From a virus, in UHGV virus genome UHGV-0362719: 34,823 nucleotides of DNA; one strand, 5' to 3'. This document shows, piece by piece, positions 6,969-29,156 of the stretch. The notes under the pieces are model-generated. The model was not told the origin of the DNA, made no database searches, and saw only the letters and a program-made list of their open reading frames with translations. Position numbers and translations under genes: made by a program. The number at the start of each line of letters is the position of its first letter. Within the stretch, counting starts at the first letter, position 1.

Positions 6969-7406
6969 ATGGTAAGAGTTTGCATTGATAAGAAAGGGAA
7001 TGTTATCACCGATATCTCTTTGGGAGTCGGGGATTTTGAAGATTGTTGTAGCGTAGCAGAGGAGAAGTATAATCAGGCACTTTGCAGTAATTTTGTGAGT
7101 GTGGTGGCAGTGGTGAATGACGATAATGAGAAAATAGGTTTTTGTTCATTCATCATTGAATCTACAGAGGACGCTGTAATATATCAAATCGATTATGTTT
7201 GGGTTAAGCAAAGTGAGCGGGGACAAGGGTTATCAAAATTAATGATTCCTTATGTGGCTCAAGAGCTTATTTCTATTTATAAAGACTTGCTTGGAAAGTA
7301 TTCATTTGGTGATATATGTCTTTGTGATAATTCTGTTTATATATCGGATGGAGGGGCTGTTTTTGGTCGAGGGGTAAAGGGATTCACCTTTAATGTAATT
7401 AAGTAA
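6969..7406 (+). CDS. Cargo ORF, GNAT-like acetyltransferase candidate
   Basis: 145 aa, low GC. Segment VWVKQSERGQGLSKLMI resembles the GNAT motif-A acetyl-CoA loop (R-G-x-G-h-g). Weak, by-eye call. Confidence 0.4.
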   Translation: MVRVCIDKKGNVITDISLGVGDFEDCCSVAEEKYNQALCSNFVSVVAVVNDDNEKIGFCSFIIESTEDAVIYQIDYVWVKQSERGQGLSKLMIPYVAQELISIYKDLLGKYSFGDICLCDNSVYISDGGAVFGRGVKGFTFNVIK

Positions 7407-7462
7407 TTCCGGGTGAAATGAAAAAGATATCTCAATGTTTGAGATGGAACAAATTTAAGAAA

Positions 7463-7500
7463 CTCCGCCGGTGCTGAAACTTGCTTTCAGTGCTGGCGGA
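7463..7500. terminator. Bidirectional hairpin between convergent cargo ORFs
   Basis: Seen: about 15-bp imperfect stem (CCGCCGGTGCTGAAA / TTTCAGTGCTGGCGG, three G-U wobbles) with loop CTTGC, lying between the stops of 6969-7406 (+) and 7515-7946 (-). Confidence 0.5.
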
Positions 7501-7514
7501 GGTGAAGTAAGGCG

Positions 7515-7946
7515 TTAGCTAGTTATCAGATTGACACCGAGGGTAAGCAGGTTTGTTACTGCACCGGCAATAACACCAGGTGTCCCGTCCTTCACTGCGC
7601 TGATAATCTTATCTCCCATCGTTTCATTACCGCCAAGTGCTTCGGGTTTTTTGTTGAGCACCGCGAGTGCTTTCTCGGTCAGTCGCACATCATGAAAACC
7701 GGTCTGATGGTCTGTTCCGTACAGAATATAGCCGTTTTCGCTTAAGAAAGTGAATGTGCCATCAACCACACTACGCAACTGATTCAGTGCTTTCATTTCT
7801 GGTGAGTTAAGTTGGTCAAAGTAGTCATCAGGTAACGCGGCGTTAAATTTTTTGTAGGTGATGACTTGTGGTACAGGAAAGTTATCCCATAGCACCGCAA
7901 AGATTTCTGCCGTCTGTTGGTTGAATAATTCGAGATTTTTGGACAT
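7515..7946 (-). CDS. Cargo hypothetical protein (143 aa), unknown function
   Basis: Track ORF with AAGGGA RBS about 8 nt upstream of ATG; hydrophobic Gly/Ala-rich C-terminal tail (GTPGVIAGAVTNLLTLGVNLI). No recognisable family. Confidence 0.55.
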   Translation of the reverse strand: MSKNLELFNQQTAEIFAVLWDNFPVPQVITYKKFNAALPDDYFDQLNSPEMKALNQLRSVVDGTFTFLSENGYILYGTDHQTGFHDVRLTEKALAVLNKKPEALGGNETMGDKIISAVKDGTPGVIAGAVTNLLTLGVNLITS

Positions 7947-8450
7947 GCATAGTTCCCTTTCATCAATTAAAGACCCTTATGCCGACTGGGCAAAGAGGCT
8001 AACTGTAATGGCCTCAAATAACGACCTGAGCTCACGCGAGGTGGACAGTTACACTGAAAAAATGGTTGAACAAGCCAGTAAAGATGAGCTTATGGTCGTT
8101 ATAAAATACCTGTTAAATCACATCAGAATGAGTAAATAAAATGATCTATATCAAGATGTTATCTCACATTTATGAAAGTCCGTGGACAACGATTTTTCTG
8201 CTAATTGTTGTCAGTACGTGCCTCAACAGTGTGATTGGTGCATTGCGCGGCCAGTGACAACTATAAAAATTGATCAGAACCGGCACCATGAATGCCGGTT
8301 TTTTTGTGCTTTTTCTGTGATATCCCCGTTTTTATCTGTGCATGGTTTTGCATGTGCCGGAGTTACATGTTCTGGCTGTGCGTCCGCCAGGACTGGCGTG
8401 GCTCAAAAGCGGTATTGCAACTGCATTAAAACCGCCCCATGAAGCGGGCG

Positions 8451-8469
8451 GGCGAGGCGGGGAAAGCAC
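8451..8469. promoter_or_regulatory. cos: Putative cos site (19-nt cohesive end GGCGAGGCGGGGAAAGCAC)
   Basis: Seen: exact 19-mer GGCGAGGCGGGGAAAGCAC at 8451-8469 with flanking dyad symmetry (CCGCCC...GGGCGG). Matches my recollection of the P2/P4 cohesive-end sequence, which I cannot verify here. Confidence 0.5.
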
Positions 8470-8575
8470 CGCGCGTAAGATAAACAGAAGAGCGAAGGAT
8501 TATGGTTGAGTATTTGTGTTTTTGTACATATGATAAAAAGGTGTTTACGCTTAAAAACACATCAAAGGAGATGAT

Positions 8576-9877
8576 ATGGAAAATATAAAGATTGATAAGT
8601 TTCTCACTATTCAAAAAGTTGATATTCCTCTTAAGAAAGTGAATATATTTATTGGGCCTCAGGCACAGGGGAAAAGTGTCATTGCAAAGCTAATAAAATA
8701 TTTTAAAGATTACCCTATGGATATACTACGAGCTTCAACAGAGGGTAAAACTAAAAGAGATATATTGAAGGAGCAAAAGAATAAGTTTAGTAAAATTTTC
8801 CCTCAGCAGTATTGGGCTGATGATGAGTTTTTTATTGAGTATAGTAATAAGCACTATTGGGTGCGGATTACTAATCGAAAAGATAGCAAAGGGTCATTGA
8901 AAATAACCCTTTCTGAGAATTTAACGAAGACGATTGCTAAACTTCGTTTGATTGTACGAAAGGATTTAGATGAAAATATTGAGAATTCACTTGCAGAAAG
9001 CGTTACGAGAAGACGTAAACGCGGAATTGAACATGAATTGCGAGTATGTCTTTCTCTAGGATTGTTTTCAGAACCAGAAACAAAGCTTGAAAGTGTTTTT
9101 TATATCCCCGCAGGGCGCTCTTTTTTTGCTAACTTGCAAAAAAATGTGTTTTCATTTTTATCCAGTAGTATAGAAATTGACTACTTTTTGACAGAGTTTG
9201 GTTCTCTGTATGAACAAACAAAAAAATTATTTAGCCAAGATTACATGATTAGGATGCTTAGGGGGGCTGTGCCTCAACATGTTAATAAGCTTGTGGAGGA
9301 GTTGATTTGCGGAAAATATATAACAGAAAAGGGTGAGGATTTTATTCGTCATGCTGCTAAAAAGACGAATCTTAACAACTCGAGCTCAGGGCAGCAAGAA
9401 GCGTTACCAATGGCTTTAATGTTATCCTCATGGCCGTATTTACAGTCTATGACTAGTAAGAGTTTTATTATTGAGGAGCCGGAGGCTCATCTGTTTCCTT
9501 CTGCCCAAGCAAAAGTTGTATCTTTAATAGCCTCAGCGTATAACCAAGCAGAAAGCTATTGTAGCTATACAATAACAACACATAGCCCATATATTCTAAG
9601 TGCCTTCAATAATTTGATTCAAGCAGGTAATGCATTGAAGTGTATTAAGGGCAAGAATAATGCCGATATCGAACGCTTATATAAGCTTGTTCCAGAGTCT
9701 CAAATTATTGATTTTGATGATGTGACAGCTTATATGGTTAATGCTGGGAAAGTGACGGAAATACTGGATTCCGAACTAAATATATTAGATGCGAATGAAA
9801 TAGATAGGATTTCCTCTATTTTTTCAGAGACTTTTGATGCATTGATTGATATCGAATATTCGGCTACTGTGAATTAG
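8576..9877 (+). CDS. ABC-type (OLD/SMC/RecF-like AAA_15/AAA_21-type) ATPase, candidate defence protein
   Basis: 433 aa, strong AAGGAG RBS. Seen motifs: Walker A GPQAQGKS; signature-like SSGQQ; Walker B/D-loop FIIEEPEAHLFP; H-loop TTHSP. No TOPRIM-like C-terminal domain evident. Very low GC relative to the backbone. Confidence 0.8.
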   Translation: MENIKIDKFLTIQKVDIPLKKVNIFIGPQAQGKSVIAKLIKYFKDYPMDILRASTEGKTKRDILKEQKNKFSKIFPQQYWADDEFFIEYSNKHYWVRITNRKDSKGSLKITLSENLTKTIAKLRLIVRKDLDENIENSLAESVTRRRKRGIEHELRVCLSLGLFSEPETKLESVFYIPAGRSFFANLQKNVFSFLSSSIEIDYFLTEFGSLYEQTKKLFSQDYMIRMLRGAVPQHVNKLVEELICGKYITEKGEDFIRHAAKKTNLNNSSSGQQEALPMALMLSSWPYLQSMTSKSFIIEEPEAHLFPSAQAKVVSLIASAYNQAESYCSYTITTHSPYILSAFNNLIQAGNALKCIKGKNNADIERLYKLVPESQIIDFDDVTAYMVNAGKVTEILDSELNILDANEIDRISSIFSETFDALIDIEYSATVN

Positions 9878-9885
9878 GTGATTGA

Positions 9886-10323
9886 ATGTGTAAAAATTGC
9901 AAAGGAAAAACAAAAAATAAAATCATTGTGCTATCTGATAAAGGAACGTCAACGCAATTGTCAGTCATAAATGATAATGAGTTGGAGGTTGAGCATAAGT
10001 TAATAGATGGTTGCGCTATTGTTGTTGGGGAGCGGTGTGATCATTATTTGAAGATTTATAACAATCAGGATGTTTCACATCTTTTTGTTGAACTTAAAGG
10101 AAGTGATGTTGAAAAAGCTGTTAAACAGATAGTGACAACTTTAAAGTCAGGTGTGATTAATGTAGGTGCTAAAGAAAAAAAACATGGTGCTATTGTTAGC
10201 ACTAGGAATCCGCTAAACTCAACAGAAACCAATAAGTTAAAGAAGAAAATTCTTTTGAGTGACGGAGTGAATTTGCATTTCTATAAAATGAAGGCGCAGC
10301 AAAAAATAACTTCTTTTACATGA
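9886..10323 (+). CDS. Small partner protein of the ABC ATPase (145 aa), possible nuclease-like effector
   Basis: Starts 9 bp after the ATPase stop, same strand (operon). N-terminal CKNCKGK (CxxC); possible D...ExK arrangement (ERCDHY ... LFVELKG). Nuclease assignment is inference only. Confidence 0.6.
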   Translation: MCKNCKGKTKNKIIVLSDKGTSTQLSVINDNELEVEHKLIDGCAIVVGERCDHYLKIYNNQDVSHLFVELKGSDVEKAVKQIVTTLKSGVINVGAKEKKHGAIVSTRNPLNSTETNKLKKKILLSDGVNLHFYKMKAQQKITSFT

Positions 10324-19663: not shown

Positions 19664-20449
19664 TTATGAGTGGTTTTTATTTGATGCTTTGTATTCTAAA
19701 ACCTTCTTATTGGCGTAAAGGAATTTTGTATATGACAGGAATATAAGCAGACCTGAAATGAAATAGGTTAGGGACATTATTAATAATGTTTTTCTGTAGC
19801 TGTTATTATCTTTAATCTCCTGACTTAACCATTCGGAGTCCTCCTTGTTTAGCTGTAAGAGCTTATTGCAGGCGATCTCGGGAAGTGTGTCTTTTATAAA
19901 TACGTTTTGCAGACTCTTGCAATCGGCAAGGCTATAAGTTTTATTAAATTCAACCGTTTTATTTTTGAAGGATAAAAGAACTTTGTCACTATAAACATAG
20001 TACATCATATTTTTATATGGTATACCTATGGCATCCCTTACTATAGCGGATTGTTCATTGTGTATATAACATGCGAAGAGAATATAAATAATACTGGCCA
20101 GAATTACAATTGTTGTTTTAATTATGTGTGGTGGTTTTGTTATGTCACCCCAGAAGCGAGTAAGGAAAAAATACGATGTTTTTAGTTTTCCATCAATCAG
20201 CCCCTGCTGTATCATTCTCACATCTTCGATGCCTGATACATTGATTCCGTTAATTATTTTAAATAGTTGAATGTCGCGCCATTTTTTGTCGAGCATTTTT
20301 AACTTTCTGTCTGAATACTCAAGATTGAAATGATGTGCAATAAACCTCATAAGATTACTTTTACCAAAGGTAACAAATGTTAATGCTATTAATAAAAATA
20401 GATACAAAGAGATAAACCACCACGCATTAGTCACATTATCACTGAACAT
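19664..20449 (-). CDS. Cargo multi-pass membrane protein (261 aa) at the S-V junction (P2 orf30 position)
   Basis: Track ORF on the opposite strand to the late operons; very AT-rich; hydrophobic helices seen (WWFISLYLFLLIALTFVTF, TIVILASIIYILFACYIH, LLIMSLTYFISGLLIFL). Confidence 0.6.
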   Translation of the reverse strand: MFSDNVTNAWWFISLYLFLLIALTFVTFGKSNLMRFIAHHFNLEYSDRKLKMLDKKWRDIQLFKIINGINVSGIEDVRMIQQGLIDGKLKTSYFFLTRFWGDITKPPHIIKTTIVILASIIYILFACYIHNEQSAIVRDAIGIPYKNMMYYVYSDKVLLSFKNKTVEFNKTYSLADCKSLQNVFIKDTLPEIACNKLLQLNKEDSEWLSQEIKDNNSYRKTLLIMSLTYFISGLLIFLSYTKFLYANKKVLEYKASNKNHS

Positions 20450-20532
20450 TACGCTCTCCTCGAATGTTGTATGGTCGTTCTACAAATGAATCCAGATAGC
20501 ATAACTTTTATATATTGTGCAATCTCACACGC

Positions 20533-21168
20533 ATGAACACTCTCGCAAATATTCAGGAACTCGCGCGCGCACTGCGCAACATGATCCGCACCGGCATTAT
20601 CGTCGAAACCGACCTTAATGCCGGTCGCTGCCGTGTGCAGACCGGCGGCATGTGCACCGACTGGCTTCAGTGGCTGACCCATCGCGCCGGGCGTTCGCGC
20701 ACATGGTGGGCACCTTCCGTGGGGGAACAGGTGCTGATTCTGGCCGTGGGTGGTGAACTCGACACGGCGTTCGTTCTGCCGGGGATTTATTCCGGCGATA
20801 ACCCCGCGCCGTCTGCGTCGGCGGATGCCCTGCATATCCGTTTCCCTGACGGGGCGGTGATTGAGTATGAACCTGAAACCAGCGCGCTCACGGTAAGCGG
20901 AGTTAAAACGGCCAGCGTGACGGCTTCTGATTCTGTTACTGCCACGGTGCCGGTGGTCATGGTGAAAGCATCAACCCGCATCACCCTGGACACACCGGAG
21001 GTGGTCTGCACCAACAGGCTGATTACCGGCACGCTGGAAGTGCAGAAGGGCGGGACGATGCGCGGCAACATTGAACACACCGGCGGTGAACTCTCATCAA
21101 ACGGTAAGGTACTGCATACCCATAAACACCCCGGCGACAGCGGCGGCACAACCGGGAGCCCTCTATGA
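20533..21168 (+). CDS. V: Baseplate spike protein V
   Basis: Track ORF 20515-21168; start MNTLANIQ gives 211 aa (same as P2 V); first gene of the V-W-J-I-H-G block. Confidence 0.85.
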   Translation: MNTLANIQELARALRNMIRTGIIVETDLNAGRCRVQTGGMCTDWLQWLTHRAGRSRTWWAPSVGEQVLILAVGGELDTAFVLPGIYSGDNPAPSASADALHIRFPDGAVIEYEPETSALTVSGVKTASVTASDSVTATVPVVMVKASTRITLDTPEVVCTNRLITGTLEVQKGGTMRGNIEHTGGELSSNGKVLHTHKHPGDSGGTTGSPL

Positions 21169-22958: not shown

Positions 22959-25277
22959 ATGAGCACAAAATTCAAAACCGTTATCACCACTGCCGGTGCA
23001 GCAAAGCTGGCAGCGGCAACCGCGCCGGGAGGGCGGAAGGTCAACATTACCACGATGGCCGTCGGGGATGGCGGTGGTAAATTGCCTGTCCCGGATGCCG
23101 GACAGACCGGGCTTATCCACGAAGTCTGGCGACATGCGCTGAACAAAATCAGCCAGGACAAACGAAACAGTAATTATATTATCGCAGAGCTGGTTATTCC
23201 GCCGGAGGTGGGCGGTTTCTGGATGCGTGAGCTTGGCCTGTACGATGATGCGGGAACGTTAATTGCTGTGGCGAACATGGCCGAAAGTTATAAGCCAGCT
23301 CTTGCCGAAGGCTCAGGGCGTTCGCAGACCTGCCGCATGGTCATCATCGTCAGCAGTGTGGCCTCAGTGGCGCTGACCATTGACACCACAACGGTGATGG
23401 CGACGCAGGATTACGTTGATGACAAAATTGCAGAACATGAACAGTCACGACGTCACCCGGACGCCTCGCTGACCGCAAAAGGTTTTACTCAGTTAAGCAG
23501 TGCGACTAACAGCACGTCTGAAACACTGGCTGCAACGCCAAAGGCGGTAAAGGCCGCATATGACCTTGCTAACGGGAAATATACCGCACAGGACGCCACC
23601 ACAGCACGAAAAGGCCTTGTCCAGCTCAGTAGTGCCACCAACAGCACGTCTGAAACGCTCGCCGCAACACCAAAAGCGGTAAAAGCAGCATATGACCTTG
23701 CTAACGGGAAATATACCGCACAGGACGCCACCACAGCGCGAAAAGGCCTTGTTCAGCTCAGTAGCGCCACCAACAGCGATTCTGAAACGCTGGCCGCAAC
23801 GCCAAAGGCGGTAAAGGTCGCGTATGACCTTGCTAACGGGAAATACACTGCACAGGATGCCACCACCGCGCGAAAAGGTCTTGTCCAGCTCAGTAGCGCC
23901 ACCAACAGTGATTCTGAAACACTGGCCGCAACACCAAAAGCGGTGAAGTCTGCCTATGACAATGCTGAAAAACGTCTTCAGAAAGATCAGAATGGTGCGG
24001 ATATTCCGGGAAAGGATACCTTCACGAAAAATATCGGTGCCTGTCGTGCTTATAGCGGCGCTTTGAGCACTGAAGCCGGAAACTGGACAACCGCTCAGTT
24101 TATTGAATGGCTGGATTCCCGTGGTGCATTTAATCATCCGTACTGGATGTGCAAAGGCTCCTGGTCATATGCAAATAACAAAATCATTACGGATACCGGA
24201 TGTGGTGATATCCACCTGGCTGGTTGTGTCGTCGAGGTCATGGGAACAAAATCTGCAATCACTATTCGAGTGACCACGCCGACAACATCAAGCGGTGGCG
24301 GTACAACCAGCGCGCAATTCACTTACATTAATCATGGGGACGGCTACTCCCCCGGCTGGCGTCGTGACTGGAATCGTCAGGGCGACGCAATGACCGGAAC
24401 GATTAATCAGGATGGCGGAAGCCAGAATGCCTATATGTCTACGGCCTTATGTTCAGGCACCAGAGGCGGCAAAAAATATCTCAGAAAGTTTCGTGGTGGA
24501 GAAGGAGACACTATCTGGCATGAAACAGTGCAGGGCGGGGTAATTCGCTGGGCGACAGGAAACTATGACGCTCAGGAAGAATTATCACTCAGCTCCGCTT
24601 ATGGTCTCCGTTCTAGAGGTGAAATTACATCACTCAGTGCTAATGGTCTGCGCATTGCTTATGGCAATTATGGATTCTTTATCAGGAATGATGGTGGCAG
24701 CACATATTTAATGCTGACGGCCTCTGGTGATAAATTTGGGACATGGAACGGTTTAAGGCCGCTGACTATCAATAACGCTAATGGCGGAGTGTCAATGGGG
24801 CATGGCCTGAGTGTTACTGGTGATATTGCCTCAAGTACCAAAGTACGTGCCGGTAGCGGGAAAAAGTTCACGGTCAGCAGCAGCAATACATCCACGAAGG
24901 AAGCCGCATTCAATTTGTGGGGAAACTCAAGTCGTCCTGTGGTGGCTGAATTAGGTGATGATGCAGGCTGGCATTTTTACAGTCAGAGAAATACAGATAA
25001 CAGCATCACTTTTGCTGTTAACGGGCAGGTATCACCATCTAACTATAGTAATTTTGATTCACGCTATGTCCGGGATATCCGGCTTGGTGGTGCTGCCACA
25101 TACAAACCTGCGAACAATGGCATGACATGGACACATCAGGCACCGTCCGGGTGTGTATATTCCGGCATTATTGTTCAGGATACCGGCTCAAACTCTGCCG
25201 ATAACATTGGTGGCGTATATTACAGACCGGTTCAGAAATACATTAACGGGACATGGTACAACGTGGCGCAGGTATAA
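22959..25277 (+). CDS. H: Tail fibre protein H (extended, repeat-containing, mosaic C-terminus)
   Basis: 772 aa; N-terminal about 170 aa is the conserved P2 H baseplate-attachment region (MSTKFKTVITTAGAAKLAAATAPGG...); central 44-aa tandem repeats; Gly/Ser-rich C-terminal half. P2 H is about 669 aa by recollection. Confidence 0.9.
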   Translation: MSTKFKTVITTAGAAKLAAATAPGGRKVNITTMAVGDGGGKLPVPDAGQTGLIHEVWRHALNKISQDKRNSNYIIAELVIPPEVGGFWMRELGLYDDAGTLIAVANMAESYKPALAEGSGRSQTCRMVIIVSSVASVALTIDTTTVMATQDYVDDKIAEHEQSRRHPDASLTAKGFTQLSSATNSTSETLAATPKAVKAAYDLANGKYTAQDATTARKGLVQLSSATNSTSETLAATPKAVKAAYDLANGKYTAQDATTARKGLVQLSSATNSDSETLAATPKAVKVAYDLANGKYTAQDATTARKGLVQLSSATNSDSETLAATPKAVKSAYDNAEKRLQKDQNGADIPGKDTFTKNIGACRAYSGALSTEAGNWTTAQFIEWLDSRGAFNHPYWMCKGSWSYANNKIITDTGCGDIHLAGCVVEVMGTKSAITIRVTTPTTSSGGGTTSAQFTYINHGDGYSPGWRRDWNRQGDAMTGTINQDGGSQNAYMSTALCSGTRGGKKYLRKFRGGEGDTIWHETVQGGVIRWATGNYDAQEELSLSSAYGLRSRGEITSLSANGLRIAYGNYGFFIRNDGGSTYLMLTASGDKFGTWNGLRPLTINNANGGVSMGHGLSVTGDIASSTKVRAGSGKKFTVSSSNTSTKEAAFNLWGNSSRPVVAELGDDAGWHFYSQRNTDNSITFAVNGQVSPSNYSNFDSRYVRDIRLGGAATYKPANNGMTWTHQAPSGCVYSGIIVQDTGSNSADNIGGVYYRPVQKYINGTWYNVAQV
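23478..23960 (+). repeat. Tandem 132-bp (44-aa) repeats, about 3.6 copies, inside tail fibre gene H
   Basis: Seen in the translation: KG(F/L)(T/V)QLSSATNS(T/D)SETLAATPKAVKAAYDLANGKYTAQDATTAR repeated 3 times plus a partial 4th. Minus-strand track ORFs 23489-23734 and 23493-24137 show the same periodicity. Confidence 0.85.
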
Positions 25278-25280
25278 TTT

Positions 25281-25808
25281 ATGCAGCATTTGATAAATAT
25301 AACGGCAGGTAATCCAAAAACGGTTGAACAATATCAATTGACAAAGGACTTTGATGTTGTCTGGTTTTTTACAGAAGATGGTAAGAACTGGTACGAAGAA
25401 CAAAAGTATTTTGCTGATGACACGATAAAAATAGCGTACGACAAAGATAATATTATCCGCTATGTAGAAAAGGATGTGACAGCTATCAGACCGGATGGAT
25501 TAAGTGTTGTTGAAGTGCCGGATATTACTGCTAACCGACGGGCGGACATTTCAGGGAACTGGATGTTTAAGGACGGCAAAGTGATTAAACGCATTTATAC
25601 GGCAGAGGAATTACAACAGCAGGCAGAAATTCGGAAAGCCAGACTTCTTGCAGATGCTGAATCCGTGATTTTGCCGCTGGAGCGCGCTGTCAGGCTGAAT
25701 ATGGCAACAGAGGAGGAGCGCACACGGCTGGAGGCTTGGGAACGCTACAGCGTTTTGGTCAGTCGTGTGGATCCTGCAAATCCTGAATGGCCGGAAATGC
25801 CGCAATAA
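25281..25808 (+). CDS. G: Tail fibre assembly chaperone G
   Basis: 175 aa (same as P2 G), immediately after H. Confidence 0.8.
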
Positions 25809-25983
25809 GTTGTATAAGCTCTGGTGTGAGATTACATATCTATGGCACAGAGTAAAGCCTAATCTGGCAGTCCGCTCTGTGCCATTACCGGACATACTGA
25901 GCAGAAGGCTAAAAAGGACGCTTTCAGGACATATAGCAAGGGAGCAAAGATGAAAGAATTAACCCAGTAATGATAGTTTCTGA

Positions 25984-26010
25984 ATTAAAGGGGGCTACCC
26001 ACCCCCTTTA
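25984..26010. terminator. Strong GC hairpin after the stop of the leftward cargo ORF
   Basis: Seen: TTAAAGGGGG-CTACCCA-CCCCCTTTAA (10-bp stem, 7-nt loop) with A/T-rich flanks, 2 bp from the stop of ORF 26012-26290 (-). Confidence 0.55.
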
Positions 26011-26011
26011 A

Positions 26012-26290
26012 TTACTTGTTCCACTCAGTCAGAATTTGGTTACTAACTTCATCTGAGAGATTGTACCAATAAGCTGAGTTATTGGTTGCGTCTACAACAA
26101 TAAGCTTATCATCACTATCCATGACCGCCCTCACAATTTTGGCTGCATCCTCGGCAGAGTAACTACAGTTAACATACCAGTTCGATTCAGTTGTTAAAGC
26201 CCAATTTCCTAAAGATTTAATTGCATCATACACAGCCGCATAATCTTTCGTTTTAATGAGGTCGTAAGTAATAAATAAATTATTAGCCAT
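26012..26290 (-). CDS. Cargo hypothetical protein (92 aa) at the G-FI (Z/fun) position
   Basis: Track ORF, AT-rich, opposite strand to the tail operons, followed by a hairpin terminator; no recognisable motif. Confidence 0.5.
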   Translation of the reverse strand: MANNLFITYDLIKTKDYAAVYDAIKSLGNWALTTESNWYVNCSYSAEDAAKIVRAVMDSDDKLIVVDATNNSAYWYNLSDEVSNQILTEWNK

Positions 26291-26342
26291 AAATCATCTC
26301 CCAAAGGACAAAGAAAAAAGCGCCTAGAAAGGCGCTCATATA

Positions 26343-26561
26343 TTAATGGTCTTTAAGCCATGCCTGTACTTTCTTAGCCGAATGACCTACAGCCTGTACG
26401 GCTTGAACAAGTTTGGCCTCGCTAACTCCAAACTTTTCAGCCCAATCACGTCTCTCGTAATCCTGTTTGATACTTATTAAATCATTGTCAGGGGTACCGA
26501 TTTTGGTCTTATCATCAGCCATTTTACTGATTCCTCGTGATACAGGCTTATACCTGCCCAT
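26343..26561 (-). CDS. Cargo small protein, DUF3606-like (by-eye resemblance)
   Basis: Track ORF (72 aa; alternative start MADDKTKIG gives about 59 aa). Segment DWAEKFGVSEAKLVQAVQAVGHSAKKVQAWL resembles DUF3606-family small proteins from memory. Confidence 0.45.
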   Translation of the reverse strand: MGRYKPVSRGISKMADDKTKIGTPDNDLISIKQDYERRDWAEKFGVSEAKLVQAVQAVGHSAKKVQAWLKDH

Positions 26562-27013
26562 TAGTTATATGGCTCCCGTGCTGCTTCGTAAACGTTCAAT
26601 AATCAAACAATTGACACTGATCATAAAACCAGTTAGAGGATTTGACTCTAGCTTGGATATATGATGATGCCACCCCCTTTATATTGTTGTCGGTAACTCA
26701 CAGACATTGAACTCATGCTGGTGAGTGAAAGGCTACATAAACGCCCAACATTTAAACTGCCCTCAGCAGCGTTTGCGGAGCAATATACAGGCTTCGTATT
26801 CAATCCTTGCCCTACGAGAAACCCTAGCCGTTGCCTCGTTTTCAAGTGTCAGGAAGTTCTTTGTCAGACCTCATACAGTCTTGGGCTGGGTGAGGTGCAT
26901 GGGGGAAGTAGAAGCCTTAACTGTTGAGGTAAATCGAACCATAAGTGTGCAATTTTTCAAGCCCGGCGCTATTTTAGTATTGAAAACAATTAGTACGCCC
27001 CCAAGGACAACTC

Positions 27014-27706
27014 ATGATCGAATTTATCGCAGAGCATATAAACACAGTAAGTACACTTATCTCCGCTTTGGCAGCATTGCTAACAGCAGTTGCTACATTT
27101 TTCTTGTGGAGAGTAACAAGGCTATTAGCAGACGAGACAAAAAGGATGGTTGACGCATCAGTTCAACCTCATGTCGTTGTGACTCTTGAACCAAATTCTT
27201 GGGCTGCTTTTTATTTTGATATCAATATTGCTAATACCGGAAATGCCCCAGCCTATGATATTGAAGTCGAATTTAATCCCCCACTGGTTAATGCAGAACA
27301 TAGAAAAAATAAAGGTATACCATTTAGCAAGGTTAGCGTATTGAAAAACGGTCATTCCCTCAACAGCAGTCTTTGTAAGTATGACCAGATTAAAGATCAA
27401 GTTTATTCTGTTAGTATTAGCTGGTCTAAACAGCCGGGCTCAACTGAAAGAGAGCGGAATGAGTATTCTTATGATATGGCTTCTTTCGAGGGGGTTAGCT
27501 ACTTAGGTGCAAGGAGTCCAATGACACAGATAGCTGAGCAGATGAAAAAGATTAGAGAAGACTGGAGGCCGATTTCCCAGGGAAGCAAAAAAATTAAAAC
27601 AGACAACTATAATTCAAGTGACAGAGCAGAGGAACAACGAGCACGTGAAGAGTGGTATCAGACCACTGTAAAGAAATGGGATAAAGAAAGGCCAAAAGAT
27701 AACTAA
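27014..27706 (+). CDS. Cargo membrane-anchored protein (230 aa) at the Z/fun position, candidate defence or exclusion protein
   Basis: Track ORF; N-terminal TM helix (VSTLISALAALLTAVATFFLW) followed by a soluble domain with a charged Lys/Glu/Arg-rich C-terminus; AT-rich; followed by terminator 27841-27870. Confidence 0.6.
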   Translation: MIEFIAEHINTVSTLISALAALLTAVATFFLWRVTRLLADETKRMVDASVQPHVVVTLEPNSWAAFYFDINIANTGNAPAYDIEVEFNPPLVNAEHRKNKGIPFSKVSVLKNGHSLNSSLCKYDQIKDQVYSVSISWSKQPGSTERERNEYSYDMASFEGVSYLGARSPMTQIAEQMKKIREDWRPISQGSKKIKTDNYNSSDRAEEQRAREEWYQTTVKKWDKERPKDN

Positions 27707-27840
27707 TACAATTGACCTGCTCCCCATAAATTAGCATACCACAATCTCAGGTTCCTCTTCGCTCAAAACAGGCTGTCAGATTTGATAGCGTTTTGGCTAT
27801 GTAAATTGTCAGTCGGAAAATGAGTGTGTACAAATCAGGA

Positions 27841-27870
27841 CAGGCGGGCAGATTGCCCGCCTTTTCTTTA
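27841..27870 (+). terminator. Rho-independent terminator downstream of the 230-aa cargo gene
   Basis: Seen: AGGCGGGCA-GAT-TGCCCGCCT perfect 9-bp stem followed by TTTTCTTT. Confidence 0.6.
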
Positions 27871-27965
27871 TCTGTTGTTTCATCCACTGACCAGCCAGGT
27901 CAAATAGCGTCTCATGTACTACCCAACGGAAAATAGTTGCACCCATTAACCACGGAGTTAAACGG

Positions 27966-29156
27966 ATGAGTGACTATCATCACGGCGTGCAGGTGCTGGA
28001 GATTAACGACGGCACCCGCGTCATTTCCACCGTATCCACGGCCATTGTCGGCATGGTCTGCACGGCCAGCGATGCGGATGCGGAAACCTTCCCCATCAAT
28101 AAACCGGTGCTGATTACCAATGTGCAGAGCGCAATTGCAAAGGCCGGTAAAAAAGGCACGCTGGCGGCATCGTTGCAGGCCATCGCCGACCAGTCAAAAC
28201 CGGTCACCGTTGTCGTGCGCGTGGAAGACGGCACCGGCGATGACGAAGAAACGAAACTCGCGCAGACCGTTTCCAATATCATCGGCACCACCGACGAAAA
28301 CGGTCAGTACACCGGACTGAAAGCCCTGCTGGCGGCGGAGTCGGTAACCGGTGTTAAACCGCGTATTCTCGGTGTGCCGGGACTGGATACCAAAGAGGTG
28401 GCTGTTGCACTGGCATCCGTCTGTCAGAAGCTGCGCGCTTTCGGATATATCAGCGCATGGGGCTGTAAGACTATTTCCGAGGTGAAAGCCTACCGCCAGA
28501 ATTTCAGCCAGCGTGAGCTGATGGTCATCTGGCCGGATTTCCTCGCATGGGATACGGTCAGCAGCACCACCGCCACCGCGTATGCCACCGCCCGTGCGTT
28601 GGGTCTGCGCGCTAAAATCGACCAGGAGCAGGGCTGGCATAAAACGCTGTCCAATGTCGGGGTAAACGGTGTTACCGGCATCAGCGCCTCTGTATTCTGG
28701 GATTTGCAGGAGTCCGGCACCGATGCTGACCTGTTGAACGAGTCAGGTGTCACAACGCTGATTCGCCGTGACGGTTTCCGCTTCTGGGGTAACCGTACCT
28801 GCTCTGATGACCCACTGTTCCTCTTTGAAAACTACACCCGCACCGCGCAGGTGCTGGCCGACACGATGGCTGAGGCGCACATGTGGGCGGTGGATAAGCC
28901 CATCACCGCAACGCTGATTCGCGACATCGTTGACGGCATCAATGCCAAATTCCGTGAGCTGAAAACAAACGGCTATATCGTGGATGCGACCTGCTGGTTC
29001 AGCGAAGAATCCAACGATGCGGAAACCCTCAAGGCCGGAAAACTGTATATCGACTATGACTATACCCCGGTGCCTCCTCTCGAAAACCTGACCCTGCGCC
29101 AGCGTATTACTGATAAATATCTGGCAAATCTGGTCACCTCGGTTAACAGCAATTAA
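27966..29156 (+). CDS. FI: Tail sheath protein FI
   Basis: 396 aa (same as P2 FI); synteny FI-FII-E-T-U-D. Confidence 0.95.
   Translation: MSDYHHGVQVLEINDGTRVISTVSTAIVGMVCTASDADAETFPINKPVLITNVQSAIAKAGKKGTLAASLQAIADQSKPVTVVVRVEDGTGDDEETKLAQTVSNIIGTTDENGQYTGLKALLAAESVTGVKPRILGVPGLDTKEVAVALASVCQKLRAFGYISAWGCKTISEVKAYRQNFSQRELMVIWPDFLAWDTVSSTTATAYATARALGLRAKIDQEQGWHKTLSNVGVNGVTGISASVFWDLQESGTDADLLNESGVTTLIRRDGFRFWGNRTCSDDPLFLFENYTRTAQVLADTMAEAHMWAVDKPITATLIRDIVDGINAKFRELKTNGYIVDATCWFSEESNDAETLKAGKLYIDYDYTPVPPLENLTLRQRITDKYLANLVTSVNSN

Follow-up and report, generated by a model that had tools for sequence, protein, structure and literature searches.

In P2-like phages the classical Z/fun cargo site is the interval flanked by the tail-fibre assembly gene G and the sheath gene FI. 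In the UHGV virus genome UHGV-0362719, a stretch of 34,823 nucleotides (the window) that is a complete P2-like prophage of E. coli with its replication, capsid and tail genes in P2 order, this site harbors two small adjacent genes, both reading leftward on the minus strand. One encodes a protein of the DUF3606 family, the other a protein of 92 amino acids (aa). The question raised by the locus is whether the two products work together, as proposed in an earlier note made from this DNA, which saw in them a two-gene module, perhaps a toxin-antitoxin (TA) pair. The analysis described here points instead to two separate accessory ("moron") genes that share one cassette and form no obligate pair, the Cas2-like 92-aa protein acting alone; this reading has, in our judgment, about an even chance of being right.

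Two genes in one cassette

The cassette occupies about 750 bp of the window (25881-26633) on the minus strand and comprises a putative promoter, the DUF3606 gene, an internal terminator, the 92-aa gene and a hairpin. DNA alignment places its homology from ~110 nucleotides (nt) upstream of the DUF3606 ATG to just beyond the 3' hairpin. Two other versions recur throughout: L004, a different element, and L030, from E. coli 90-1, which lacks the DUF3606 gene. From its upstream to its downstream end the cassette contains:

26593-26633, minus strand: upstream limit of the cassette, conserved (ACTGGTTTTATGAYCAGTGTCAATTGTTTGAT...) and perhaps regulatory; 26633 is where homology with L004, L030 and L090 sets in
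26564-26592, minus strand: putative sigma-70 promoter, called by eye (-35 TTTACG at 26587-26592, 17-nt spacer, -10 TATAAC at 26564-26569)
26532-26536, minus strand: Shine-Dalgarno sequence GAGGA of the 59-aa DUF3606 start, 9 nt before the ATG; identical in L004
26343-26522, minus strand: DUF3606 gene in its 59-aa reading (the 72-aa reading extends to 26561)
26308-26337, minus strand: intrinsic terminator between the DUF3606 and 92-aa genes (8-bp stem at 26318-26337, 4-nt loop, T-run)
26298-26302, minus strand: Shine-Dalgarno sequence GGGAG of the 92-aa gene, 7 nt before the ATG, read from the sequence; conserved in L004
26012-26290, minus strand: 92-aa gene, encoding a probable stand-alone Cas2-superfamily protein with a predicted ferredoxin-like fold (PHROG 1090, no Pfam family)
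25984-26010, both strands: strong bidirectional hairpin 3' of the 92-aa gene, conserved in cassette copies
25881-25970, plus strand: remnant of a tyrosine integrase, its last ~30 codons including the catalytic-Tyr region (AITGHTEQKAKKDAFRTYSKGAKMKELTQ*); matches the integrase C-termini of L004 and L030

The earlier note described the ground accurately. The same two open reading frames (ORFs) were recovered on the minus strand at 26012-26290 and 26343-26561; the AT-richness that it remarked on is borne out by a GC content of 0.37-0.45 in the insert region versus 0.56-0.59 in the sheath gene FI; and the terminator hairpin that it placed at 25984-26010 is strong indeed (-19.3 kcal/mol, z=-3.8, with none of 200 shuffles as stable). 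It had also entertained the case that the ORFs might not be conserved elsewhere, to which hundreds of homologues and purifying selection are the answer: the ratio of nonsynonymous to synonymous divergence (dN/dS) is ~0.12 for the 92-aa gene and 0.035 for DUF3606, the latter at a dS of 0.41. Because these signs of constraint are joined by Shine-Dalgarno sites and by a confident fold of the 92-aa protein, both ORFs are taken to be real genes.

On its other side the 3' hairpin, called by a terminator scan on both strands, meets the end of the H-G late transcript and the integrase remnant; the sole match in an Rfam scan of 25700-28050 is sub-threshold and falls on this hairpin. Within the 52-nt gap between the two genes lies the second, intrinsic terminator, which the earlier note did not mention and which was also picked up by the terminator scan (RNA fold of -16.5 kcal/mol, z=-2.7). 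Its hairpin and T-run are retained in L004 although the adjacent gene has a dS of 0.41, and in L030 it is gone together with DUF3606. Tight bicistronic coupling of the two genes is thus not what the gap suggests. The promoter is a by-eye call that gains support from conservation in three versions of the cassette, being TTTACG-17-TATAAG in L004 and TTTACG-18-TATAAC in the DUF3606-less L030; a consensus promoter scan, which demands T at the last -10 position, returned no site.

Linkage between the two genes

The pairing was followed through species-level genome loci of the 92-aa family, 35 of which were fetched and 33, with an intact gene, analysed with flanks of up to 4-6 kb; they span Gamma-, Beta- and Alphaproteobacteria, "delta" lineages, Campylobacterota and Acidobacteriota. 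Only one of these 33 loci, in Pantoea leporis (97% identity), has DUF3606 near the 92-aa homologue; the other 32 lack it, and so do the 16 distant viral loci, where the homologue is solo throughout. The pair is confined to very close relatives of the cassette, namely to P2-like phages from E. coli and Pantoea and to a single family of prophage ends that adjoin an integrase. Solo 92-aa genes occur in a gut phage (L012), in Pseudomonas (L056 and L058, after nrdB) and in L064. E. coli 90-1 shares the upstream region and the promoter-like element, which there run straight into an intact 92-aa gene, with neither DUF3606 nor the internal terminator.

In other E. coli, Hafnia and Salmonella prophages, the ORF upstream of the 92-aa homologue is an unrelated basic peptide of 41-42 aa. 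At L029 (5369-5497, minus strand) and L014 (5819-5944, plus strand) this lysine-rich peptide (MAKKTVVRSAITGQFV…KK and MSKRKVVRSAITGQFV…KK, respectively) takes the place of DUF3606 with an equal spacing of ~55 nt and is without a PHROG match. Conversely, in Yersinia ruckeri and Burkholderiales no Cas2-like 92-aa gene neighbours DUF3606, and the DUF3606 relatives found, mostly chromosomal in Burkholderiales, Pseudomonas and Yersinia, differ in this from the gene described here. The 234-aa protein that precedes DUF3606 in Y. ruckeri was considered and is not related to the 230-aa protein of the window.

A second pairing is that of L004, where the pair lies beside a tyrosine integrase in the end region of a small prophage and a 92-aa homologue of 76% identity is preceded by a DUF3606 gene whose product is 98% identical. 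The two genes have diverged very unequally: dS is 0.41 for DUF3606 and saturated for the 92-aa gene, and the divergence between the window and L004 shifts sharply ~70 nt into the latter. The narrow linkage, the prevalence of solo loci and the unlike divergence histories argue against an obligate two-protein machine and against a TA pair, and the earlier suggestion of one is not sustained by the terminator between the genes, by the 32 of 33 species-level and 16 viral loci without DUF3606, or by E. coli 90-1. As judged from these comparisons, the DUF3606/92-aa pairing appears to be recent and narrow.

The 92-aa protein and its probable affinity to Cas2

An AlphaFold model of the 92-aa protein, with 58 homologues as input, has a pLDDT of 93.5 and predicts a ferredoxin-like β-α-β-β-α-β-β-α arrangement. 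The β-α-β-β-α-β core is that of the Cas2 fold, and it is followed in the model by elements E62-67, E72-76 and H80-89. The best matches of the protein are Cas2 chains and BPSL1038 of Burkholderia pseudomallei, a CRISPR-independent, Cas2/VapD-like endonuclease for double-stranded DNA that has an extra C-terminal helix (PMC10491678). When a broad profile of the family is compared with all PDB sequences, BPSL1038 comes out on top over nearly its full length, at an E-value (0.23) that is not significant alone; a profile of the close family gives chance matches only. Two members that belong unambiguously to the 92-aa family, P0185 and P0225 (8e-25 and 4e-19), exceed the Pfam Cas2 (PF09827) cutoff with 29.5 and 24.3 bits, and 25 of 126 representatives match that model at E<=1; P0185, the best Cas2 scorer of the family, comes from a 693-bp contig. 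Other libraries are less informative. The protein matches PHROG 1090 and no Pfam family; NCBIfam has zero matches for either small protein (none at E<=1 for the 92-aa protein); a BFVD fold search with the model returns uncharacterised phage proteins only; and PADLOC-DB 2.0 holds no significant match, the best being Cas2_II (E=0.019) and PDC-M03B (E=0.027), with none for the 230-aa protein.

Conserved polar positions among 129 representatives are D61 (96%), S36 (75%, with a further 11% T) and D10 (71%, with a further 10% E), together with W38/Y39. D10 lies at the end of strand β1, where Cas2 has its conserved Asp, and is invariant in the 58 close homologues; the N-terminus, MANNLF, is nearly invariant in the family. 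With CRISPR Cas2 (PF09827) the protein shares the β-α-β-β-α-β core, the acidic residue at the end of β1 within Y-D-[LIV], an S-x-[WF] in β2/β3, and a D-x-[LIV]-x-[VI] before β4. It differs at the C-terminus, where Cas2 has a strand that binds Cas1 (PMC10491678) and the 92-aa model has a helix. In this respect it resembles BPSL1038 (PDB 7VXR, "Cas2/VapD nuclease sub-family"; PMC10491678), whose extended β4 region and C-terminal α3 helix are also present in the model. The BPSL1038 motif D11(X20)SST is not clearly reproduced: D10 falls near D11, the spacer is longer, and of T34-E35-S36, which the alignment sets opposite S32-S33-T34 of BPSL1038, only S36 is conserved.

The fold is also that of the Cas2-fold RNases of TA systems, VapD/VapX and GhoS/GhoT, and the relation of VapD to Cas2 has been discussed (PMC10491678). 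The 92-aa family differs from these systems in having no obligate partner, and in the present cassette the partners are separable. Natural tandem duplicates of the 92-aa domain exist in P0191, in P0205 and within P0177, a 1,507-aa Baseplate_J-like protein with a CBM_5_12 module that carries two tandem copies at ~365-540 and is the sole multidomain fusion among the top 150 family clusters. Because such duplicated forms exist, a homodimer is hinted at. From lines of evidence that are individually modest and that converge, we conclude that the 92-aa protein probably represents a divergent, CRISPR-independent branch of the Cas2 superfamily; among characterized proteins it is most likely closest to the Cas2/VapD-like nucleases of the BPSL1038 type.

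The DUF3606 protein

The resemblance of the 72-aa ORF to DUF3606, noticed earlier by eye, turns out to be true membership in PF12244 (E=4.3e-18, 65.3 bits, cutoff 24.3). The Pfam match covers residues 17-70 of the ORF and profile positions 1-54 of 54; PHROG 10779 aligns residues 14-72 onto its full profile, positions 1-59 of 59; and RefSeq annotates a 59-aa form of the gene. An internal ATG at 26522 has the GAGGA site 9 nt upstream, and the by-eye promoter would place the start of transcription at about the first, 72-aa ATG. For all of these reasons the product is probably 59 aa long, the 72-aa reading being an over-extension.

Thirteen positions are invariant in 24 DUF3606 homologues (D3, D12, I16, E23, R25, W27, E35, L38, A41, V42, V45, G46 and V52), and the protein has the conserved core of the family, D-x3-I...E-x-R-x-W...E-x2-L-x2-A-V-x2-V-G, and its small size (about 58-85 aa). 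Its predicted structure is very small: three helices in a UBA-like arrangement, preceded by an N-terminal tail that is disordered. A search of the DUF3606 profile against PDB sequences found designed helical repeats and a cathepsin at chance level only. On the simplest reading it is a small, independent protein-binding factor whose link to this 92-aa allele is recent.

Origin of the cassette

Between G and the hairpin lies the short remnant of a tyrosine integrase. In the L004 and L030 prophages, integrases converge on the 92-aa gene, and the blastn homology boundary with both elements falls at 25881, exactly at the start of the remnant. Since the remnant matches those very integrases and the homology boundary coincides with it, the cassette is traced to an integrase-adjacent site from which it was captured; capture into the P2 tail-gene hotspot brought along the bidirectional terminator and the integrase stub. 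A long inverted repeat flanking the insert was searched for and none was found, nor did a tRNA search of the window find any. The left and right inverted repeats given by the depositors of the P2-EC53 record align only weakly to each other and were set aside.

The 230-aa gene and the cargo block

The cassette shares the site with a third gene, as the earlier note recognized in placing the pair between G and a 230-aa membrane protein. The landmarks are:

1081-2094: integrase of the P2-like prophage of the window
25281-25808: G, tail-fibre assembly gene
27014-27706, plus strand: 230-aa gene, hydrophobic N-terminus; DUF8453 / PHROG 11802
27966-29156: FI, sheath gene

Known cargo at the G-FI site is similar in insertion site, AT-richness and the possession of its own signals; its genes are unrelated to the present cargo. 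The viable phage R18C, the "Z-region" record of P2-EC53 and 99 out of 5,426 complete E. coli genomes contain the 2.2-kb insert at an identity of 98-100%, and RefSeq labels its genes as hypothetical protein, DUF3606 protein and DUF8453 protein. In the P2-EC53 record (AJ512682, L001, 2002-era), the 230-aa gene is "ORF1, putative lysogenic conversion protein". Between 560 and 830 of the record the DUF3606 gene and its terminator show several single-base deletions relative to the window, most likely sequencing errors, and because of those in the DUF3606 gene the record is annotated with ORF1 only.

A cargo block of 1.9 kb (25878-27765) holds the pair and the 230-aa gene. Its identity is 93-94% both in Pantoea leporis and in P2-like phages that have just 68-75% identity in their sheath and fibre genes. 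In the Pantoea locus L032 (5193-5506) and in a divergent P2-like phage (L083, 2307-2620), the spacer that separates DUF3606 from the 230-aa gene is enlarged by an extra insertion of ~312 nt at the equivalent of window ~26787. Such transfer as a block is expected of any hotspot insert, whether its genes cooperate or not, and is no proof of cooperation. The earlier note had further suggested that the pair might regulate the 230-aa cargo; co-occurrence does not favour this idea, since ~460 E. coli genomes have a 75%-identical homologue of the 230-aa protein without the pair and outside P2 (at L067 it adjoins an AbiJ-NTD4 gene near the fec locus), and the pair for its part occurs next to integrases without the 230-aa gene.

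Distribution of the 92-aa family

A library-wide profile search assigns at least 2,362 clusters at 50% identity to the family (E<=0.001), from several phyla. Almost all members are stand-alone proteins of about 92 aa, with few tandem duplicates. Family genes are found in prophages, transposons and islands and at prophage ends adjoining integrases; when integrase proximity was examined beyond Enterobacterales, an integrase lay nearby in 3 of the 33 loci, as detected with a home-made profile that finds close relatives only. No neighbour family is shared among the 33 loci. Genes found beside family members encode SIR2-STALD, a putative AbiC, a RelA/SpoT-domain protein, ThiF/DUF6791 with DUF6527, a PIN protein, an inovirus-type Rep, UmuC, an IS30 transposase and, in Pseudomonas, nrdAB. 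In Pseudoalteromonas luteoviolacea (L064, 4601-7224), the family gene is flanked by tniQ and tniB of a Tn7/Tn5053-type transposition module and reads on the strand opposite to theirs. A CRISPR-like repeat array is present in none of 107 loci, and no cas1 or other cas gene turned up beside family genes in the 33 loci, for which no dedicated cas1 profile search was made.

More distant relatives reside in temperate phages of Staphylococcus, Enterococcus and Clostridium and are annotated there as Cas2; in Staphylococcus phage SN8 the homologue is in the immunity region, on the repressor strand. Others (31-43% identity) reside on small ColE1-type plasmids. On two of these, from Rahnella (L109, 3053-5929) and Klebsiella (L110, 362-3151), an operon encodes a 220-aa protein, a Cas2-like protein (31-37%) and a large PIN-like protein, and this three-gene operon may be an unrecognised plasmid-borne system.

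Proposed role and competing explanations

Because the cassette has its own promoter-like element and terminators and opposes the late tail operons, expression from the prophage is the simplest expectation; the lysogenic-conversion genes of P2 are likewise AT-rich and point against late operons. The cassette would be transcribed in the prophage from its own sigma-70-like promoter, with the internal terminator yielding an excess of DUF3606 and the 92-aa protein being made by read-through only. The latter, as a solo homodimer, is predicted to bind or cut nucleic acid, with Y9-D10, S36-x-W38-Y39 and D58-x-x-D61 as the likely working positions. The benefit to the mobile element might be superinfection exclusion or some other part in conflict between elements.

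Several observations weigh against this reading of a self-sufficient, Cas2-like protein. The 92-aa protein of the window itself scores 12.7 bits against Pfam Cas2, below the 23.8 cutoff. An hhalign comparison of the family with 11 Sulfolobales Cas2 proteins, a narrow profile, gives a probability of 6.5% that is not significant, in a register that is correct (YDL/YDI, LG/KG, S-W/S-F). About 19% of the distant family members have a replacement at D10, so that catalysis is not assured. The isoelectric point (pI) of 4.3 is unusual for a nucleic-acid binder, though BPSL1038 is acidic too. Charge was weighed as a clue to either a DNA mimic or a nucleic-acid binder and dropped as uninformative, the family pI ranging from 4.3 to 9.1 with a median of 6.0. 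The authors of the R18C study saw two short ORFs and assigned them no function (PMC6823313). Lastly, the 230-aa, DUF3606 and 92-aa genes travel as one block between divergent P2-like phages, which fits a three-gene system.

Such a system is the strongest rival, unlikely as we hold it to be. Here the trio would form one anti-phage system of the Z/fun hotspot, with the 230-aa membrane protein as effector and the small proteins as sensor or regulator, or, in a GhoS-like version, with the Cas2-fold protein as an RNase that holds the effector mRNA in check. The movement of the trio between divergent phages would fit it, and that behaviour is normal for hotspot inserts. The same genes are met apart, the 230-aa homologue alone in the ~460 E. 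coli genomes and the pair alone by integrases; the 92-aa family is almost always solo; the pair and the 230-aa gene are divergently transcribed across a 450-nt spacer; and PADLOC offers no significant match. The "3HP" three-gene P2 system of Rousset et al. 2022 was considered as the identity of the trio and dropped: the P2 hotspot of that paper is gpA-gpQ, not Z/fun, and its text and nine supplements contain neither these proteins nor DUF3606.

It is very unlikely that the 92-aa protein is instead an anti-defence factor, either a Cas2 mimic that poisons the Cas1-Cas2 integration complex or a small decoy. The Cas2-like fold would suit a mimic, but the protein ends in an α-helix, as BPSL1038 does, where Cas2 has its Cas1-binding strand (PMC10491678), and it is only 7-8% identical to E. 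coli Cas2. Moreover, the gene is oriented like prophage-expressed rather than early lytic genes, the charge of the family is not conserved (see the median pI above), and some members are in apparently chromosomal settings, e.g., downstream of nrdAB. Least probable of all is a VapXD-like type II TA system with the 92-aa protein as endoribonuclease toxin and DUF3606 as antitoxin: the order of the genes is that of VapX-VapD, in which a small upstream gene precedes the Cas2/VapD-fold gene, the internal terminator would give a surplus of the upstream product, and other prophages put a different small ORF (the 41-42-aa basic peptide) at the same spacing, but E. coli 90-1 keeps the promoter and an intact 92-aa gene without DUF3606, solo genes stand between opposite-strand tniQ and tniB (L064), after nrdB (L056 and L058) and in gut phage L012, no partner family is conserved across the 33 species while DUF3606 stands alone elsewhere, and the products of one cassette have diverged unequally (98% versus 76% aa identity). 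Two accessory genes of separate history, the 92-aa protein working by itself, thus remain the preferred reading.

Other cargo of the prophage

Further cargo is present elsewhere in the window. The gpA-gpQ (old/tin) hotspot, 6969-10323, contains a GNAT-like 145-aa ORF, a leftward 143-aa ORF, a 433-aa AAA_15/AAA_21 ATPase and an adjacent 145-aa ORF, and the last two may be a two-gene, ATPase-based defence system. At 19664-20835 (minus strand), the orf30 cargo position in the tail completion/baseplate gene interval is taken up by two leftward ORFs (261 and 128 aa) that match nothing in Pfam; R18C carries a 741-bp ORF at the equivalent position. The tail-fibre protein H (22959-25277, plus strand) contains a motif of ~40 residues (…KGLVQLSSATNS.SETLAATPKAVK.AYDLANGKYTAQDATTAR…) in three to four tandem repeats.

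Significance

The pair itself is ordinary hotspot cargo, and it illustrates how such cargo is assembled: a promoter-to-terminator cassette was captured with a piece of integrase and then swapped as a block among divergent P2-like phages. The 92-aa family is of wider interest, being widespread, strongly conserved and uncharacterised, and having no Pfam model; BPSL1038 is its only studied relative, and one whose biochemical activity is known. The P2 cassette offers a tractable E. coli system for study of the family, with a viable phage (R18C) that carries an identical insert, natural variants that have or lack DUF3606, and an obvious choice of point mutants. Cas2/VapD-like proteins of the solo kind are relevant to the origin of the CRISPR adaptation module from genes of mobile elements. 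A bolder and quite unlikely proposal is that this large clade of CRISPR-independent Cas2-like proteins, so far unrecognised and carried by phages, transposons and islands (by plasmids in its more distant relatives), would be a new single-gene weapon between mobile elements that acts alone, either a prophage-expressed exclusion nuclease or a Cas2 mimic that blocks spacer acquisition; if true, it would supply a functional link between Cas2 and its pre-CRISPR ancestors.

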